From the IMG/VR virus record IMGVR_UViG_2617270947_000002: DNA of 8,569 nt; one strand, written 5' to 3'. The notes below the pieces were generated by a model. That model did not search any database. It saw only the letters and a list, made by a program, of their open reading frames with translations, and was not told the origin of the DNA. Both the position numbers and the translations under genes were made by a program. This document shows, piece after piece, positions 1-7,020 of the stretch (positions are counted from its first letter, which is position 1; each line of letters opens with the position of its first letter). The DNA comes from a virus (Monodnaviria > Loebvirae > Hofneiviricota > Faserviricetes > Tubulavirales > Inoviridae).

Positions 1-1266
1 TCAAAGCGCACGAATAATATGAGCAGTCAGCAGGACATACATAATGCGTTGCTCATTACTGTCAGCTTTACTCCTGAAAAGCCAGCCAATTACCGGAATT
101 TTGCTGATAAATGGTACAGAACGGTCAGCATTGCTGGATGATGAATCAATCAGCCCACCAAGTAAGAGCGTCTGGCCATCCTTAATCTGAACTGTTGTCT
201 GTATCTGACGCTGGTTCGTAATAATATCAGATGCCTGGTCATCGTTGCTGATGGAATCAGCGCGGGTATCAATAGTAAGTACAAGCTGGCCGTTCCCCAT
301 AACAACAGGCGTCACCTTCAGAGATACGCCAACATCATGACGTTCAATGGTCTGAAACGGATTATTTACCCCGGCAGATTCACCCGTAACTTTACCCGTG
401 ATAAACGGCACATTCTTACCTACGGAAATATAACCAGTCTGACCGGACTGAGTAAGAATGCGCGGTGTTGAAATCACCTTAGAGCGTGAATTACTCTGGA
501 CAGCACGCAGAGACAGCGCCAACACGTTACCATCAAAAATACCAAAAGAGCCGCCCACCGTAGAAAGAGCATTACCCAGCGCAGAAGTATTAAAACCCCC
601 CGCCACCTTATGGCCGGATGCAGAGCCAGCTGCAAATGACAAATCAACACCATCAGACAAACTGGTTTCAAACATGAGCGATTGAATGAGTACCTGATCA
701 CGGGCAACATCAACTGAGTTAATGAAATCGGACAGAACAGGCAGTAGCTCGTCAGGCGCAGATACAATCAGGGAGTTATTGCCGGGATAATCCACGACAT
801 TACCCCCGCCATTCGAATCCAGATAAATTTTAACCAGTTGCTGAACATCAGACGCTCGTACTTTTGTCAGCTTAAAATTTCTGACAGTGAGCGCCACAGG
901 CGCTGGCTGATAGGATGGCTCTGGCGGAAAAAAGTCATAAGACTGATTATCGGAATCATCAGGGTCTGATGCCATCTGTGACGGTAATTTTGACGGCAAA
1001 GATACTACCGCAGGATTACCAGAAAGCATGACAAATCCATTAGCATTCAGAACAGATTTGAAAAAGTCATCAATATTTGTGGGATTAACATCAGCATTAA
1101 ATACTGTTACGGAGCCTTTAACATCGGGGTCAACAATAACAGGCTTACCAGTTTTTGATGAATACCACTGGACAAATGAACGAACGGATGAATTATTAAG
1201 ATTAACAGTTTCAGCAGAAACACAAAAAGAATAAATGAATAAGATGGCAATGCAAAATAAACGCAT
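1..1266 (-). CDS. gIV: pIV secretin (outer-membrane phage export channel), 421 aa
   Basis: Start MRLFCIAILFIYSFCVSA (signal peptide) at ATG 1264-1266; stop TGA is window nt 1-3. Recalled M13 pIV matches closely (e.g. GGSFGIF, VPFITG.VTGESA.VNNPFQTIER, GQTLLLGGL, C-terminal ..RAL). The ORF-track N-terminal extension (1267-1359) overlaps gI and is rejected. Confidence 0.95.
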   Translation of the reverse strand: MRLFCIAILFIYSFCVSAETVNLNNSSVRSFVQWYSSKTGKPVIVDPDVKGSVTVFNADVNPTNIDDFFKSVLNANGFVMLSGNPAVVSLPSKLPSQMASDPDDSDNQSYDFFPPEPSYQPAPVALTVRNFKLTKVRASDVQQLVKIYLDSNGGGNVVDYPGNNSLIVSAPDELLPVLSDFINSVDVARDQVLIQSLMFETSLSDGVDLSFAAGSASGHKVAGGFNTSALGNALSTVGGSFGIFDGNVLALSLRAVQSNSRSKVISTPRILTQSGQTGYISVGKNVPFITGKVTGESAGVNNPFQTIERHDVGVSLKVTPVVMGNGQLVLTIDTRADSISNDDQASDIITNQRQIQTTVQIKDGQTLLLGGLIDSSSSNADRSVPFISKIPVIGWLFRSKADSNEQRIMYVLLTAHIIRAL

Positions 1267-1273
1267 AGTAATA

Positions 1274-1648
1274 TTACTCCTGACAGGTGACGCTTTGTAA
1301 ATAATGGCCTTTTCTGATAACAATTCGGCAGGCATCTTTAATATCAACGGAATAACCATCTTTAATTAAATCAAAATACTGGTACTTCATACCCTTAGCG
1401 TCAACAAACGTAACAGAAACATCAAAACCAAGCTGAGAGAAAGAATCAATAGAAAGTCTCGGTAAATCGCTGGTACTGTCAGGTGTTACCGCCCTCACCT
1501 GTTCAGCATGAACTGATTTAATAGCCGAAATTTCATCGGCATTCTTACCAGATTGTAGCCAGAAGCCAAGCCCAAGCCCAAAGGCCAAAAATGAAAGCAT
1601 TAATATTAATCGGTTTGATTTTCGGAAATAAATTTTCGTGAGGCGCAT
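1274..1648 (-). CDS. gXI: pXI, in-frame internal-start product of gene I (C-terminal 124 aa)
   Basis: Internal ATG (complement of cat 1646-1648) is Met241 of pI, the same position as in M13 pI as I recall it; begins MRLTKIYFRK vs M13 MKLTKIYLKK, just before the TM segment. Confidence 0.65.
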   Translation of the reverse strand: MRLTKIYFRKSNRLILMLSFLAFGLGLGFWLQSGKNADEISAIKSVHAEQVRAVTPDSTSDLPRLSIDSFSQLGFDVSVTFVDAKGMKYQYFDLIKDGYSVDIKDACRIVIRKGHYLQSVTCQE

Positions 1649-2368
1649 ATAATAATTAAGTCCTTTGTGAACAGAAAACTGGCCATGTGTAATAAATGGC
1701 GGTAAAAGCGAATAAGCACCATGCGGATAGTTATCAGTAAAAACCTGTTTTGTATTGTAGGCGGAATATAATGATTTTCCGGTGTATATCCATTTATCAA
1801 CAGTAATTGAATTAACGTTATCACCATATTTAACAATACCAAAATGTCCCTTTGGTAAAGAAAATCGCGCTCCTGAAACTAAATTCATAATAGAGCCAAT
1901 AAAAGGAATGTTTAATTTATCTGAACGGCGGCAATAAACAACATGTTCAGCAAGCGCCAGACGAGCTTGTTTATCCATTATCGAAATATCCTGAATCAAA
2001 AAAATAATATCCCAACCTAATTTACGGGCATGTAAAAACCAGTCAATAACAGGTTGTCTGTCTTTATCACCCCATGAACGGGAATTAAACCAAGTACCAC
2101 ATTCATCAAGCACTAAAAGGCCATTGCGGGATTCATCGTAAGATGTATTTCCAATACCAATAGCCAGTAAATCATTTAATGAAGGCTTATCAGGAACACG
2201 AATAACGCGCGTTTTTTTAGCATAACGCCCAACCATAGGCATATTATGCAATTTAAGGTCAAGATTAGTGGCAACAGGACAACCCTTAGCCAGTCTTTCC
2301 TGTATTCTGGAAACACTAACCAGTGTCTTGCCTGAGCCTAATTTGCCTGTTACTACATGAACCGCCAT
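1274..2368 (-). CDS. gI: pI assembly ATPase (Zot-like P-loop NTPase), 364 aa
   Basis: Starts MAVHVVTGKLGSGKTLVS (Walker A GSGKT); near-colinear with recalled M13 pI (LLVLDECGTWFN, QPVIDWFLHARKLGWDIIFL, EHVVYCRR); single TM segment near residues 254-270. Confidence 0.95.
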   Translation of the reverse strand: MAVHVVTGKLGSGKTLVSVSRIQERLAKGCPVATNLDLKLHNMPMVGRYAKKTRVIRVPDKPSLNDLLAIGIGNTSYDESRNGLLVLDECGTWFNSRSWGDKDRQPVIDWFLHARKLGWDIIFLIQDISIMDKQARLALAEHVVYCRRSDKLNIPFIGSIMNLVSGARFSLPKGHFGIVKYGDNVNSITVDKWIYTGKSLYSAYNTKQVFTDNYPHGAYSLLPPFITHGQFSVHKGLNYYMRLTKIYFRKSNRLILMLSFLAFGLGLGFWLQSGKNADEISAIKSVHAEQVRAVTPDSTSDLPRLSIDSFSQLGFDVSVTFVDAKGMKYQYFDLIKDGYSVDIKDACRIVIRKGHYLQSVTCQE

Positions 2369-2710
2369 TTAAATCACCCTGTTTGCATAATCAAGAAATT
2401 TTTGTTTTAAATCGAAAACAAAAACACTGATACGAGTAACCATAATAACGTTAACACACGCCTGAAAATGGTCAGGCAGTACAGACGCCATTAGATGTGA
2501 AAAATCAGCGGGTAACCCGATATACATGACCTCAGCAAGGTACTGCATTAAAAGCGTAACAGTTGTTGTAATTAGCGCAACCAATGCAACCGCTATTAAA
2601 CCTGTTTTGGTTGCAAGCCGAGCTAAAAAACTTGCCGCATAGCCAATAAGCAAAGGAACAAGACCAATAAGAAAACGCAACAATGCAGGAATACCTAATA
2701 ATAAAGGCAT
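2369..2710 (-). CDS. gVI: pVI minor coat protein, 113 aa
   Basis: [16 protein letters not shown].. resembles M13 pVI MPVLLGIPLLLRFLG..; hydrophobic; ends FDLKQKF like M13 FDVKQKI. Stop TAA 2369-2371 abuts the gI ATG (TAAATG); start ATG 2708-2710 overlaps the gIII stop (ATGA). The ORF-track GTG start at 2713 is rejected in favour of the ATG. Confidence 0.9.
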   Translation of the reverse strand: MPLLLGIPALLRFLIGLVPLLIGYAASFLARLATKTGLIAVALVALITTTVTLLMQYLAEVMYIGLPADFSHLMASVLPDHFQACVNVIMVTRISVFVFDLKQKFLDYANRVI

Positions 2711-3954
2711 CACTCACCACCTTTACGAAGCAATGAAGTTAAAGAAGTAAATACATACCAGAACGTAAGGCAATAAAAAACCCATGAAAGAGCATTTTTA
2801 ATAGTCAGCAATTTATCGCAGCCAATATCGATCTGATAAACCTCTCCGGGAAAAATAATAAAATCAGAACAACCATTACCATTAGGTAAATTGGGCAACA
2901 TAGCACCTTTATTTAAGAAAGCCTCCCATAACGCACCATGAGAATCCTTTGCAATTCCTAATTCAGATTCAGCTAAAGTGGAAGCGCTATCTAATTCAGA
3001 CCCTCCCTCCCCATAACGGGAATCGCCGCCAGAAGGATCAGCAAAACGTCCGGCTCCGCGAGTAAGGTTATTTATAGAGTCAACAAGACGATTTATATTA
3101 TTTTTAGTCTGTTCATCAGCCGACTTTTTATCATCAGATGAGGTATCTTTTTCTGTTAACTTATCATGAATCTCACTGGCAATTTTAGGTGAAGCACCTT
3201 CGATAGCTGACTGAATATCTCCTTTGGTAATACTTGAGCCATTACCACCGCCAGAACCGCTACTTGGGTTACCACCGCCTGTATCACCTTCCTCGGTATC
3301 ACCATCACCTGTATCCCCGCCTCCAGTATCACCGCCATCGCCAACAGGAGAAGAAGGCTTATCTGAAGGTGCGGCTACAGTTCCGGTAGGCTTCCATGTC
3401 GCAGCACAAACAGTGCTATCACTCTGGCAAACAATGACGCCAGTGGCCTCATATTCACAACCGTTATAATAAATATAACGATCACCGTCATAAGAATAGA
3501 CATTATTGAATACACCTTCTTCGGGGGGTTTAGCTTCACAAATCTCTTCAGGCGTAGGCTCGGAAGGTTTTTCATCAGGAATAGATCGTTGAATATCACC
3601 TATAATATAAGCAGTTAAAGTCCAGTATTTATCTTTCTGGCCTGGAGAGTCGCTGTAAGTACAAGCGTCAGAAAATACAAGACGGAATTCAGAGTTAGGC
3701 CACATTCCCTCATAAGTTGGTTTAACCTGATTAAAAACAACCTGAGCACTGTCTTTAGCTCCCTGACAGGCAGAAGCCTGCATGGTTGCATCAATATAAT
3801 AAACAGTTTGTTTAGTGCCATATTGGTTGGTTATTTGCTTACTTTCAGCATATGCAGAGCTTTGAAAAGTAGATTTAGTAATGCTCTCCCATGAATCAGC
3901 ATACGAAAAAGAAGAAATAAAAATAGAGAAAGTAATTAATATTTTCCTTTTCAT
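2710..3954 (-). CDS. gIII: pIII adsorption protein, 414 aa; signal peptide, N-terminal domain of unknown specificity, N1-like TolA-binding motif, Gly-rich linker, C-terminal anchor domain
   Basis: Start [19 protein letters not shown] (ATG 3952-3954) just after the gVIII terminator. [34 protein letters not shown] parallels M13 N1 DRYANYEGCLWNATGVVVCTGDETQCYGTWVPIG. Linker [25 protein letters not shown]-terminus [24 protein letters not shown] parallels M13 FVFGAGKPYEFSIDCDKI..LRNKES. Confidence 0.9.
3240..3345 (-). repeat. Imperfect short tandem repeats encoding the Gly/Asp/Thr-rich pIII linker
   Basis: Plus strand shows reiterated ggtatcacc / gtatcacc / gtatcccc units with ccgcc spacers; encodes (G)nDTG repeats on the minus strand. 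Confidence 0.6.
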
Positions 3955-3961
3955 AATAACC

Positions 3962-3991
3962 CAATTTAATAAAGGGGCAACAAATGCCCCT
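3962..3991 (-). terminator. Rho-independent terminator between gVIII and gIII
   Basis: Minus-strand read AGGGGCA-TTTGT-TGCCCCT followed by TTATTAAATT (7-bp GC-rich stem, U-rich tail); same position as the classic Ff terminator after gene VIII. Confidence 0.7.
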
Positions 3992-4000
3992 GAGTGAATT

Positions 4001-4243
4001 TTAAACTGCTTTGGAAGCGAATTTTTTAAAAATACGAATGGCAAGGCCAGCACCAACTACAGCAACAACGACAGGCCATACTTTACCAATAAGATCATTT
4101 GCCTGAGTCAGTAATGCATCCATTGCCTGACCTGCATAATCAGCCCCGCCTGTAGACCCATCTGCCGCAAAAGAACTCGCAGAAACAAAAAGCGCTGTTG
4201 AAGCTGCTGCAATTTTAAATTTAACAAGAGATAAAACTTTCAT
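4001..4243 (-). CDS. gVIII: pVIII major coat protein precursor, 80 aa
   Basis: [26 protein letters not shown] signal then AADGS..; C-terminus [12 protein letters not shown] resembles recalled IKe (..KKFSSKAV) and M13 (..KLFKKFTSKAS). RBS GGAG 9 nt upstream of the ATG. Confidence 0.92.
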
Positions 4244-4267
4244 ATAAATAACTCCATTAAAGTTACA

Positions 4268-4363
4268 TTACATTAATCGGTCAGAAAATGATTTAAATGA
4301 ACCGACCGCGTAGAAAAGGGCAAAACCAAAGGTATAAGCCCCGAAGAAATAAGCTATATACAT
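4268..4363 (-). CDS. gIX: pIX minor coat protein, 31 aa (hand-translated, below ORF-track size cutoff)
   Basis: ATG overlaps the gVII stop (TAATG); MYIAYFFGAYTFGFALFYAVGSFKSFSDRLM, hydrophobic; C-terminal FSDRLM parallels M13 pIX ..FTRLMETSS; correct position between gVII and gVIII. Confidence 0.6.
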   Translation of the reverse strand: MYIAYFFGAYTFGFALFYAVGSFKSFSDRLM

Positions 4364-4449
4364 TAACGAAAAACCCCCGCAGTAATTGCGCCGAGGCCAA
4401 AAGAGATAACAATGCCTGACGCTATTAATATTTGTATAACATCAGCCAT
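4363..4449 (-). CDS. gVII: pVII minor coat protein, 28 aa (hand-translated, below ORF-track size cutoff)
   Basis: ATG 4447-4449 lies 2 nt after the gV stop, with AAAGG upstream; MADVIQILIASGIVISFGLGAITAGVFR, hydrophobic; correct position and size for gVII. Confidence 0.6.
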   Translation of the reverse strand: MADVIQILIASGIVISFGLGAITAGVFR

Positions 4450-4451
4450 AT

Positions 4452-4769
4452 TTAACCTTTTATTTCAGTGATTCCACCGTCAGATGAAATATTATAAGTT
4501 ACTCCTTCTCTACCCTCCATTGACCAGACACGAACATATACAGGTATCTGGACTAACTTACCGATAAGATTATTTGCCTGATTCATTACACCGGCATTAA
4601 CAAGAGCCTGAGAAACACGAATAATAATTTGGTCTTGTTTAGTGCCGCCAAAACCATCAGGGATCTCAAGGCCAATACCAATTTCATTATAGTATCCCTG
4701 ACCGTTGACTTTATTACGCTGACGAGCACCAAGCATTTTACCTTTTACGAAAAGACCATAATTAGACAT
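4452..4769 (-). CDS. Protein in the gene-V slot, 105 aa; presumed ssDNA-binding/packaging protein by position, sequence not recognisably Ff gVp
   Basis: Strong RBS AAGGAG 6 nt before the ATG, immediately after the gII stop; sits exactly between gII and gVII. I see no similarity to the 87-aa M13 gVp as recalled. Confidence 0.7.
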   Translation of the reverse strand: MSNYGLFVKGKMLGARQRNKVNGQGYYNEIGIGLEIPDGFGGTKQDQIIIRVSQALVNAGVMNQANNLIGKLVQIPVYVRVWSMEGREGVTYNISSDGGITEIKG

Positions 4770-4780
4770 ATTACTCTCCT

Positions 4781-5095
4781 TTAATGCCAGCTACTGGCAT
4801 GTGGAATGCGGTTATAATCGAAAATTAAACCTTTCTCATAAACCCATGATGGAATTTTGGCTGGTTTAGCCTCAAGTGTTCTTACTAATGGAACAACATT
4901 ATTTGAATCAGGGGATTCACAATAAAAATTAATATCTATCCCAAAAGACAGCAATTCTTTACGATGTCGGTAGAATGTAGGTTTCGGTAACATTTCTTTC
5001 ATGTTCGCGCCCTGCTTCCACAACAAATATGTAGACTGTATTTTTCTTGGGAGATTAATTATTTTTTCATCAGTTAATATGGTATTTTGATTCAT
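4781..5095 (-). CDS. gX: pX, in-frame internal-start product of gene II (C-terminal 104 aa)
   Basis: Internal ATG (complement of cat 5093-5095) preceded by AGGGAG with a 7-nt spacer; starts MNQNTIL.. vs M13 pX MNIYDD..; size comparable to the 111-aa M13 pX. Confidence 0.7.
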   Translation of the reverse strand: MNQNTILTDEKIINLPRKIQSTYLLWKQGANMKEMLPKPTFYRHRKELLSFGIDINFYCESPDSNNVVPLVRTLEAKPAKIPSWVYEKGLIFDYNRIPHASSWH

Positions 5096-5833
5096 TTCTA
5101 TTCTCCCTGCATAGTCAGAGAATAATTTATTGGGCGTATCAATATTCCAACTATTACCAAGCGTAAGGTTCAAATCAATTAATTCAGTTGTTCTTAACGT
5201 TAATTCAATACGTAATTTATCTTTTGACCAGTCCAGTAAACCAGCGTTAACAAATTCATCAGCAATCTGGTGCCCTTTTTTACCAGATATGTGTTCATCA
5301 TATTTTGAATAAAATTTCAAACTCCAACGACGGGAGTTTTTTCCTAAGTAAACAGTGCCACCTTTACCACAGGCGCGACCGTGGCGAGTTTTCGCTTTAA
5401 ATTCTGCGGCATATAACCATGCGCGGACATTTTCTAATGTTGACAATGAATACATATAGTTGATATCAATACGCGAGATCTTAAATTGCCCTGCCATTAC
5501 CTGTCGATAGGATGAAAGATCATGAGGAATATGCAGTAATGCCAATATTCTGGCATAAGCTGTTAATACTAACCCTTGCAAATCATCGGAGCCGATAACA
5601 GAGTGACCTTGCAAAAACTTTGACGGATTGCCGTCAATATAGAGATGTGTTGCCCGACCTTCGCCATCAGATCCAACAGATCTTACTTTCATAGTGGATT
5701 CATACGAACCGCGAACGGTCAACCGTTTTAGTGTTTCCCACTCCACTGCACCGTCAGCATCAACGCTGACGACACTACCAGCCGGTAATGGTCGGTGTAT
5801 GCAAGGTAGGATCCCGGTAAACCAGTCAATCAT
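4781..5833 (-). CDS. gII: pII rolling-circle replication initiator (nickase), 350 aa
   Basis: MIDWFTGILP vs M13 MIDMLVLRLPF; PSKFLQGHSVIGSDDL vs M13 PAKVLQGHNVFGTTDL; NNVVPLVR identical to the M13 pII C-terminal motif. RBS GAGG 7 nt upstream. About 60 aa shorter than M13 pII (410 aa). Confidence 0.93.
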   Translation of the reverse strand: MIDWFTGILPCIHRPLPAGSVVSVDADGAVEWETLKRLTVRGSYESTMKVRSVGSDGEGRATHLYIDGNPSKFLQGHSVIGSDDLQGLVLTAYARILALLHIPHDLSSYRQVMAGQFKISRIDINYMYSLSTLENVRAWLYAAEFKAKTRHGRACGKGGTVYLGKNSRRWSLKFYSKYDEHISGKKGHQIADEFVNAGLLDWSKDKLRIELTLRTTELIDLNLTLGNSWNIDTPNKLFSDYAGRIEMNQNTILTDEKIINLPRKIQSTYLLWKQGANMKEMLPKPTFYRHRKELLSFGIDINFYCESPDSNNVVPLVRTLEAKPAKIPSWVYEKGLIFDYNRIPHASSWH

Positions 5834-6000
5834 GTATCGCCTCAGAGAACAATTTTGTGACCAGAAAGCCTGTCAAGAGCTTATTAGTACCAATTCAGTC
5901 ACACAAATGTACCACCCAAGATCTTACCTCTCAAGTGATTTTGTACTGGATAAGTGACATATTTGTTCTTTTGAAATGGAGCAAAAAAGTAGGATATAGA
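5834..6000. promoter_or_regulatory. Divergent intergenic control region between gII (minus) and the HTH regulator gene (plus)
   Basis: 167-bp AT-rich non-coding gap between divergent start codons; direct repeats CCTGTCAAGAG (5869-5879) and CCTCTCAAGTG (5927-5937); ATTTTGT-containing repeats at 5852-5864 and 5939-5951; -35-like TTGTAC/TTGTTC hexamers. Promoter positions not determined. Confidence 0.45.
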
Positions 6001-6453
6001 ATGAGCGACAACTTCAACAGTAATGGCTACCCGGAAGAAATGGCAGAAGACATAGACTTACAGCGGGCAGAAAGGATAAAAAAAGCGATCCTAAGCAAAT
6101 TCACATACGAAAGGATGGAAGAACTGTCAGGCATCAACATTGGCACACTGAAACGAATCGCAAACGCACAGAGGGATGCGAAAATCAGTGAGCTGGAAAA
6201 AATTGCTGAAATCACTCAGACAGACATATTTGAACTGATTTTTGGCTCCAGTAGCAGTGATATCTACGATTCCAGCAAACGCTTCTTTGAGACGAGAAGT
6301 AAAGATGCGGCTCAGGCGGCTCAATTCATCATCTACAATCTTCGTACCCTTGATGATGAGGATATCCTTTGTTTGGGGAGAGTTTCGAGTGCCTTGCAAA
6401 CAGCAACAACATCAAGAAAATGGGATGAGCTTTTCGGGAAGAAGAAAGGCTGA
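6001..6453 (+). CDS. XRE (Cro/CI)-family helix-turn-helix transcriptional regulator, 150 aa; candidate phage repressor
   Basis: RBS AGGA about 7 nt before ATG 6001; residues around 24-60 (RIKKAILSK..MEELSGINIGTLKRIANAQRDAKISELEKIAEITQTDIFELI) fit the XRE HTH pattern; divergent from the replication gene. The ORF-track upstream extension (5857-6000) is rejected. Confidence 0.8.
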   Translation: MSDNFNSNGYPEEMAEDIDLQRAERIKKAILSKFTYERMEELSGINIGTLKRIANAQRDAKISELEKIAEITQTDIFELIFGSSSSDIYDSSKRFFETRSKDAAQAAQFIIYNLRTLDDEDILCLGRVSSALQTATTSRKWDELFGKKKG

Positions 6454-6507
6454 GTCTCAGAAATGAGACAAACGTGCAGTATTACCAACACTGCACGTTC
6501 TTTATTG
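6454..6507 (+). terminator. Tandem hairpins after the regulator gene; the second is a rho-independent terminator
   Basis: GTCTCA-gaaa-TGAGAC (6454-6469), then ACGTGCAG-tattaccaaca-CTGCACGT (6472-6498) followed by TCTTTATT. Confidence 0.65.
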
Positions 6508-6541
6508 TGCGAATTTTGAACAGTAAAAAAGGATCAAAAGG

Positions 6542-6964
6542 ATGAGTAGAAATAACGAAACAAGCGGCGTTGAACTGGTTGTCGTCGGCGTATTTGCTTT
6601 CTGTCTGGCAGTTGTTGCCTGGCTAATGAAAACTTTCGATGTTGAATGGCAAACAGCACTGGAAACTGCGCCTGGCCTGATAGTCTGGCTGCTTGTTGTT
6701 GGGGCGGGGGTCTTTTTCGGGATCAAAATGGAAACAGGTCTTGTTCGCTGGGGTGCTCCACTGGCGATCGCCCTTCTGATTCCGGTATTCAAACCAATTA
6801 TTAAGGAAGCGGCCGGAGTTCGTGAAATGGGCGGATTGGTTTTCGATGATATGGTTTCGTGGTACGGAACTGGCTGGGGAATGTCTCTGATGTTCTTCGG
6901 GATTCTTATCGTCGGATACGGTCTGCTTTATTGGTGGCACAGAAGGAATTCATATTACTGGTAA
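6542..6964 (+). CDS. Small integral membrane protein, 140 aa, about 4 predicted TM helices; prophage cargo, function unknown
   Basis: AGGA-containing RBS upstream; hydrophobic stretches VELVVVGVFAFCLAVVAWLM, GLIVWLLVVGAGVFFGI, WGAPLAIALLIPVF, GMSLMFFGILIVGYGLLYWW; no motif I recognise. Confidence 0.65.
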   Translation: MSRNNETSGVELVVVGVFAFCLAVVAWLMKTFDVEWQTALETAPGLIVWLLVVGAGVFFGIKMETGLVRWGAPLAIALLIPVFKPIIKEAAGVREMGGLVFDDMVSWYGTGWGMSLMFFGILIVGYGLLYWWHRRNSYYW

Positions 6965-7020
6965 TAATATTTTACCGAATCGAGCTGATGGAAAATCGCC
7001 TTAAACAGGAGTCAATTTAA

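Follow-up and report, generated by a model that had tools for sequence, protein, structure and literature searches.

The DNA studied here (IMGVR_UViG_2617270947_000002; 8,569 nucleotides, hereafter the window) is a filamentous (inovirus) prophage at the E. coli dif site, of the CUS-1/YpfPhi type (PMC4266046). We focused on positions 5834 to 6453, which hold a gene for a 150-amino-acid (aa) regulator and the 167-bp gap (5834-6000) across which it diverges from gII, the replication gene. An original prediction for this DNA had described the arrangement as a temperate-style switch, with an XRE-family repressor facing the replication gene across direct repeats, as in rstR/rstA of CTX-type phages. 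The open reading frame (ORF) has the coordinates, length and orientation claimed for it there. The features of the region and its borders are as follows.

4781-5833, minus strand: gII, rolling-circle replication initiator and presumed target of the regulation (Pfam Phage_CRI 5e-72, G2P_X_C 4e-34; phrog_702 replication protein, 2e-117)
5840-5843, minus strand: gII Shine-Dalgarno sequence GAGG, 6 nucleotides (nt) before the ATG, read from the sequence
5846-5861, minus strand: operator-like site O1, GTCACAAAATTGTTCT, 3 nt from the gII Shine-Dalgarno sequence; 12 of 16 positions kept in the related locus L018
5871-5876, minus strand: perfect −35 TTGACA of a possible second gII promoter, with a weak −10 AATTGT inside O1
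5898-5913, plus strand: operator-like site O2, GTCACACAAATGTACC; 15 of 16 positions kept in L018
5906-5934, minus strand: predicted gII promoter, with −35 TTGAGA (5934..5929), a 17-bp spacer and extended −10 TGgTACATT (5914..5906)
5954-5969, plus strand: operator-like site O3, GTGACATATTTGTTCT; 15 of 16 positions kept in L018, and GTGACATATTTGTTC invariant in all four sequences of alignment A4
5955-5963, plus strand: candidate regulator promoter, an extended −10 TGaCATATT inside O3, read from the sequence and conserved in A4
5991-5994, plus strand: regulator Shine-Dalgarno sequence AGGA; AGGA.ATAGAATG is invariant in all four A4 sequences
6001-6453, plus strand: regulator gene, 150 aa (PGAP WP_000069317.1, "transcriptional regulator"; phrog_3557, 1e-68)
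6034-6243, plus strand: XRE/Cro-C1 helix-turn-helix (HTH) domain, residues 12-81, with predicted recognition helix at residues 47-54, IGTLKRIA
6250-6447, plus strand: conserved C-terminal helical region, residues 84-149 (alignment A2), with model helices at 84-98, 101-114 and 119-149
6454-6499: two stable hairpins (6454-6469 and 6471-6499), then CTTTATT; DNA fold −17.6 kcal/mol, z −4.45

The regulator gene is real and under strong purifying selection. Its ratio of nonsynonymous to synonymous substitution (dN/dS) is 0.038 against the copy in Erwinia tracheiphila, which disposes of the possibility that the ORF is untranslated. Compared with L018, whose regulator is 86% identical, the proportions of nonsynonymous and synonymous differences are 0.08 and 0.83, the latter saturated. 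A conserved AGGA-N6-ATG in relatives backs the start at 6001, and a 198-aa extended ORF from a GTG at 5857 was rejected: the Shine-Dalgarno sequence and ATG at 6001 are conserved and the operators lie upstream of that ATG. Conservation over residues 1 to 13 is poor, and translation might start 13 residues later; Met14 (6040-6042) aligns with a conserved Met (consensus M.D..RAERIK) that is the annotated start of several homologs. Besides E. coli, where it occurs in 15 of 5426 complete genomes and is rarer than the CUS-1 allele (about 121), the window regulator is found in Salmonella, Y. enterocolitica, Klebsiella, Kosakonia and Erwinia.

As had been predicted, the protein carries an HTH of the XRE/Cro-C1 type (Pfam HTH_3, clan HTH), detected at both the family and the fold level; other databases also label it XRE-family. 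Its own family counts 39 representatives at E ≤ 1e-3 among 1.84 billion proteins, and HTH_3 is matched by 19 of the 24 aligned members. The C-terminal domain (about residues 84-150), unrecognized at first reading, is likewise real and conserved: its profile found no consistent family in Pfam and nothing significant among PDB sequences (best E 0.58, to the GCN4 coiled coil). The family shares the motif A..FII(W/Y)NLR.L...DI..I...V.AL, also written for residues 84-149 as A..FIIyNLRtL...DI..l..v.AL (alignment A2), and the domain defines a small family without a Pfam model. By analogy, and given its helical nature, we presume that it is an oligomerization or partner-binding module, although this is a guess.

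Within the gap we identified three 16-bp pseudo-palindromes of the form GTCACA-N4-TGTkmC, in each of which a good half-site, GTsACA, is separated by 4 bp from a degenerate second one. O2 and O3 are direct and lie 56 bp apart, while O1 is inverted, with centre-to-centre distances of 52 and 56 bp. The direct repeats described earlier were thus right as to the presence of repeated elements and the orientation of O2 and O3, but the elements are pseudo-palindromes and one of the three is inverted. The pattern has 3 matches against 0.4 expected, a partly circular comparison, as the pattern was taken from the same sites on which it was tested. The rest of the intergenic region keeps 54 of 98 positions in L018 (55%), against 12/16, 15/16 and 15/16 at the sites, and conservation at saturated synonymous divergence provides independent support for O1 to O3. 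Moreover, in the more distant metagenomic inovirus L013, whose regulator is 49% identical and has the recognition helix NIGTLKRI, a perfect palindrome, GTCACAGATTTGTGAC, is found in the intergenic region, and a GAACAAAATTGACAC site adjoins the gII start. As for the promoters, the predicted leftward gII promoter at 5906-5934 is the only match of a consensus scan in the intergenic region; its −10 and expected start fall inside O2, and the −10 is invariant in A4. The sequence TGTCAAG, at the perfect −35 of the possible second gII promoter, is also invariant in all four A4 sequences. A leaderless regulator promoter, or one of the form TTGAAA-N18-TATAGA, was rejected: it is not conserved in L018 and its start would fall downstream of the ATG.

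Comparison with the locus L004 shows that the intergenic region and the regulator are swapped together as a cassette among phages that are otherwise about 95% identical. Up to the start codon, gII of the window and of L004 are 94.8% identical; the intergenic regions are then 39% identical and the regulators 47.5% at the nucleotide level (40% over 146 aa, E 1e-27), and from the first base past the stop codon, in the hairpins, identity returns to 97.9%. The L004 regulator allele is 99.2% identical to the one in UTI89 (O18:K1:H7), whose prophage carries it at the same site, and it is also present in NU14 and NC101. In L003, by contrast, the intergenic region and regulator are identical to those of the window while the downstream genes and the morphogenesis module differ. 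The CUS-1/L004 allele has three sites of its own, TGCTCA-N4-TGAC, all intergenic and 39 bp apart, where 0.02 would be expected; none of these sites occurs in the window, nor does the window operator motif occur in the L004 intergenic region. Particularly, the recognition helix IGTLKR is paired with GTCACA in the window, L018 and L013, and S(V/I)STLVR is paired with TGCTCA in L004 and L014. The L014 regulator is distantly related to that of L004 and its recognition helix is similar; between it and gII lies a perfect palindrome, TGCTCACTAATGAGCA. The operator half-site thus tracks the recognition helix, and not gII or the cargo. This pairing is our strongest computational argument for taking the unit as an immunity determinant whose sites the regulator reads.

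On its right the cassette is bounded by the hairpins (6454-6499), which are 97.9-100% identical in L003 and L004 while their flanks diverge and which are probably the regulator terminator. The block 6454-6525 is 98-100% identical among phages with differing flanking modules, which makes it a recombination boundary and probably a functional element. A plus-strand origin at 6471-6512 was suspected because CACGTTCTTTATTGTG, in the hairpin loop, resembles the nick site of the f1 gene II protein (gpII), and was dropped. Against the f1 nick-site sequence the alignment score is 28, while shuffles give 25.9 ± 2.3 with a maximum of 32, and CACGTTCTTTATTGTG lies on the strand opposite gII, complementary to the viral strand by the geometry of the attachment (att) site. 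A convincing f1-like origin core is seen in L013 (5085-5150), on the gII-sense strand downstream of the regulator. There CCACGTCCTCTAATAGTGG lies within a hairpin and GTCCAAAATGTGGAC comes after it, at the place equivalent to ig-1 of CTXphi.

Copy number of the cassette also varies. L002 (LSN03-016011/A) has at 10302-11530 a 776-bp tandem duplication of window 5708-6486. It takes in 129 nt from the start of gII, all of the intergenic region, the regulator and half the hairpin, and its junction is a 3-nt ACC microhomology situated in the loop of the hairpin; this leaves two copies of the regulator and operators per prophage. In E. coli DA33137 (L030, 16438-33376), two complete prophages with the window-type allele A lie in tandem at dif, similar to the tandem arrays formed by YpfPhi and CTXphi, and other strains have up to 5 cassette copies per genome. 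Heterotypic tandem arrays were considered and set aside, the one array examined (DA33137) being two copies of the same type.

The arrangement is not restricted to these phages. Homologs of the regulator (33-49% identity, plus the 86% of L018) face a Phage_CRI gene wherever the context suffices, namely in L013, L014, L015-17, L018 and the inovirus PQ189297, the Vibrio homologs being those of Vibrio cyclitrophicus inoviruses. A short gap between the regulator and a divergent replication initiator, and a repressor and operators that vary as discrete alleles beside a conserved replication gene, are the layout and the behavior of the RstR-like functional class. L018 (1-3906) has its regulator and gII beside structural genes of the Ff/IKe type (Phage_DNA_bind PF02303, Phage_coatGP8, G3P_pilus-bind), and would be an Ff-like phage equipped with a temperate-style regulator. 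In the E. coli element L019 (1925-3405), an 82%-identical homolog (P0005) faces a 294-aa protein with no Phage_CRI match and only a weak NikA-like one; this element also carries a resolvase and an SNase-domain gene, and here a mobile element of another kind may have acquired the regulator module. For the homolog in L011, the upstream ORF was not used for synteny, as its identity as gII was not established (E 0.11).

The layout was already known in CUS-1, YpfPhi and CTXphi, so the window offers a fresh allele and not a new kind of system; what the analysis adds is a definition of the operators, the precise limits of the cassette, the correspondence between recognition helix and half-site, and the C-terminal family. 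The idea of a repressor had likewise been published for the YpfPhi/CUS-1 counterpart YPO2273 (PMC4266046). That counterpart, represented by the 148-aa protein WP_000527682.1 of UTI89, has the same divergent position, length and two-part architecture as the window regulator, with homology over the HTH and C-terminal regions and the C-terminal motif in common, and it too sits in a dif-integrated inovirus with a CTX-type double att site beside hipA. We infer that the UTI89 allele is YPO2273 from the 99% identity between CUS-1 and YpfPhi given in a review (PMC4266046). CUS-1 gII, gV and ORF140 are about 95% identical to those of the window, whereas the operators differ in half-site (GTCACA in the window, TGCTCA in CUS-1) and in spacing (52/56 against 39/39 bp). 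In CTXphi, too, an XRE-type HTH gene diverges from a Phage_CRI-type replication gene, and both phage types integrate at dif through a folded double att site and form tandem arrays. RstR has about 110 aa, and the window protein has an extra conserved C-terminal region of about 67 aa. In CTXphi the repressor changes along with its intergenic region, the pairs forming allele-specific immunity types that parallel the window cassette, and each RstR allele represses only its own ig-2 promoter (PMC11509585). The repressors of the lambdoid phages (lambda cI, P22 c2, 434) differ, as they have a RecA-cleavable S24 peptidase domain at the C-terminus and a Cro partner gene and control a lytic cascade, not a rolling-circle initiator; the C-terminal region of the window protein is all-helical in the model and matches no family, which sets it apart from the cleavable lambda cI/LexA class. 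SinR-type regulators, with an HTH and a short helical oligomerization domain, match the window protein through the HTH, the C-terminal part showing no significant similarity to them, so this architectural likeness is a lead only.

Taken together, we consider it likely that 5834-6453 is the immunity-type cassette of a CUS-1/YpfPhi-like dif prophage and that the 150-aa protein is an allele-specific gII repressor working like RstR of CTXphi. The N-terminal HTH would read 16-bp pseudo-palindromic operators with the consensus GTCACA-N4-TGTGAC, and the C-terminal helical region would probably hold dimers together and may link dimers on separate operators. The predicted gII promoter has its extended −10 and start under O2. 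O1 falls within the gII leader, beside the ribosome-binding site, and over the −10 of the possible second promoter; occupancy of both would shut off gII, reducing rolling-circle replication and virion production from the prophage and blocking replication of an incoming phage of the same allele. O3 covers the candidate extended −10 promoter of the regulator, and its occupancy would result in autoregulation. The word switch, as used in the original prediction, fits a regulator facing gII but is loose, since there is only one regulator and no Cro-like partner.

Several observations weigh against this reading. The window protein alone scores slightly below the Pfam HTH_3 gathering threshold, and it has no match to the NCBIfam model NF041951 (phage_RstR) at E ≤ 0.1; the CUS-1 allele reaches 19.7 bits with that model, whose cut-off is 80, and a tblastn search of phage records did not find CTXphi. 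The operator test is partly circular, as stated above. The promoter calls come from consensus matching only, the candidate regulator promoter has no good −35 and was missed by the consensus scan, and the region contains 2 promoter-like sites when shuffles give 4.1. A route of induction is also hard to point to. PrstA of CTXphi is co-repressed by LexA; in 5834-6000 there is no match to a LexA box (CTGT-N8-ACAG, ≤1 mismatch), and SOS control of the CTXphi type is thus not seen in the window. A Pfam search found no Peptidase_S24 domain in the regulator, no antirepressor was identified for it, and no RstC-like one is known; induction probably follows a route different from that of CTXphi. The likeness to rstR/rstA therefore stands for the position and for the cassette and operator behavior, and not for membership of the RstR sequence family or for the LexA box. 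Finally, the gene, its fold, the sites and their conservation, the cassette-like exchange and the link of half-site to recognition helix are observed, whereas DNA binding, the sign of the regulation, the promoter positions, oligomerization and immunity are inferred, and YPO2273, called an RstR homolog in the rstR position, has a role that "awaits experimental demonstration" (PMC4266046).

The same observations can be read in other ways. The regulator might bind the three sites mainly as an activator or a Cro-like modulator, acting on its own gene, on gII or on the ratio between promoters, without maintaining repression or immunity. The XRE family does include activators and dual-function controllers, the best structural match of the window protein is C.AhdI, an activator/repressor controller protein, and a weak regulator promoter without a −35 is what a promoter in need of activation would look like. 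However, O2 on the −10 and start of gII and O1 in its leader are repressing positions and not activating ones, the exchange of cassettes with allele-specific operators is the hallmark of RstR and other immunity repressors (PMC11509585), and YpfPhi lysogens are partly protected from superinfection (PMC4266046), so we regard a primarily activating role as unlikely.

We give even less credit to two explanations that separate the regulator from gII or from the sites. In one of them the protein would serve the rightward accessory genes ORF140 and ORF110, as an XRE-type antitoxin or a regulator of cargo or exclusion, and its adjacency to gII would be incidental. A strong terminator-like hairpin separates it from ORF140, though, and all the repeated sites are on the gII side. 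L003 combines an identical regulator with unrelated downstream genes and L004 a 40%-identical regulator with the same ORF140, a pattern that indicates that the regulator co-varies with the intergenic region and not with the cargo; in L013 and PQ189297, moreover, no such genes follow the regulator. We find this account very improbable. It is equally hard to believe that the repeated sites are due to chance or serve another factor, such as a host regulator of the SlyA/RovA type or gpII, with the HTH protein acting elsewhere. Binding of RovA at the promoter region of the YpfPhi gII homolog (PMC4266046) and the circularity of the motif statistics lend this idea some weight, but the sites are kept at saturated divergence, and the same half-sites recur as perfect palindromes in independent loci whose regulators have matching recognition helices. 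As for gpII, the motif changes with the regulator allele while gII stays about 95% identical, so it cannot be the reader.

The rest of the window contains the following features.

1-1359, minus strand: gIV secretin
1274-2368, minus strand: gI/Zot
2369-2713, minus strand: gVI
2710-4056, minus strand: gIII
4001-4243, minus strand: gVIII
4268-4363, minus strand: small g7-like ORF
4452-4769, minus strand: gV
6542-6964, plus strand: ORF140, predicted membrane protein of 140 aa (phrog_4174; conserved in CUS-1)
7021-7353, plus strand: ORF110, 110 aa, with no family match
7366-7461: CTXphi-type double att site, a pair of inverted dif-like sites around a hairpin, followed by hipA

The window corresponds to L001 2302-11157 (98.7% identity), where a perfect 28-bp dif lies at the far prophage end (1278-1305), about 1 kb to the left of the window. 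In complete E. coli genomes the same element sits between a perfect dif and hipBA. The regulator ORF is therefore inside a prophage, between the perfect dif and the double att site, and is not an unrelated chromosomal gene. The left dif-like site (7366-7392) reads GGTTCGCACAA-TGACG-TTATGCTAAAG and the right one (7434-7461) is the complement of GGTGCGCATAA-TGTACGACTCG-TTATGTTGAA; between these two inverted sites is a GC-rich hairpin (7393-7430). On the hipA side a perfect chromosomal XerC arm is joined to the phage central region, and on the far side dif is intact, a geometry which indicates that the minus strand of the window, the sense strand of gII, is the integrated viral strand. Compared with L001 and L002, hipA has a 289-bp internal deletion at 8464/8465 (L001 10764-11052 is missing) that breaks the gene into ORFs 7536-8477 and 8444-8569, which are out of frame with each other, and thereby inactivates the HipA toxin beside the prophage in the window strain.

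The phage is strongly mosaic, as seen when window 1-4400 is compared with L003, L004 and L028. Its morphogenesis module (attachment protein, DUF5455, Zot, secretin) is unlike that of CUS-1 (DUF2523, a 520-aa protein, another Zot), despite which gII and gV are about 95% identical in both. Only 3 of the 5426 complete E. coli genomes contain at least 80% of the segment 4700-7500, a megablast search of phage records with that segment gave no match, and Rfam families gave nothing meaningful in 5600-7600. ORF140 and ORF110, the two rightward accessory ORFs between the regulator and the att site, have no assigned function, and L003, L004 and UTI89 have other genes at the accessory position, for example one for an ECs_2282-family zinc-binding protein in L004.

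The logic of the cassette matches that of CTXphi RstR and introduces no new principle. It does provide a concrete circuit, with three operators, predicted promoters, two natural alleles with different half-sites and a correspondence between recognition helix and half-site, in a group where a link to fitness or virulence has been made for CUS-1 in E. coli K1 and for YpfPhi in Y. pestis, and where control of production and superinfection immunity was never tested (PMC4266046). Such a circuit could explain which filamentous prophages co-reside in dif arrays. Tentatively, and with somewhat more doubt than belief, we extend this to the enterobacterial dif-integrating inoviruses as a whole (the CUS-1, YpfPhi and PhiYep-1 group and their mosaics). 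They would carry exchangeable, non-cross-reacting immunity cassettes, each made of a regulator and three 6-N4-6 operators, bounded by the gII start codon and the conserved hairpin and built on an undescribed family of repressors with an HTH and a helical domain. If true, the cassettes would be for E. coli, Salmonella and Yersinia what the rstR types are for CTXphi, with the conserved C-terminal domain as the place where an inducer or antirepressor acts, and they would determine which filamentous prophages can be stacked in tandem at dif.
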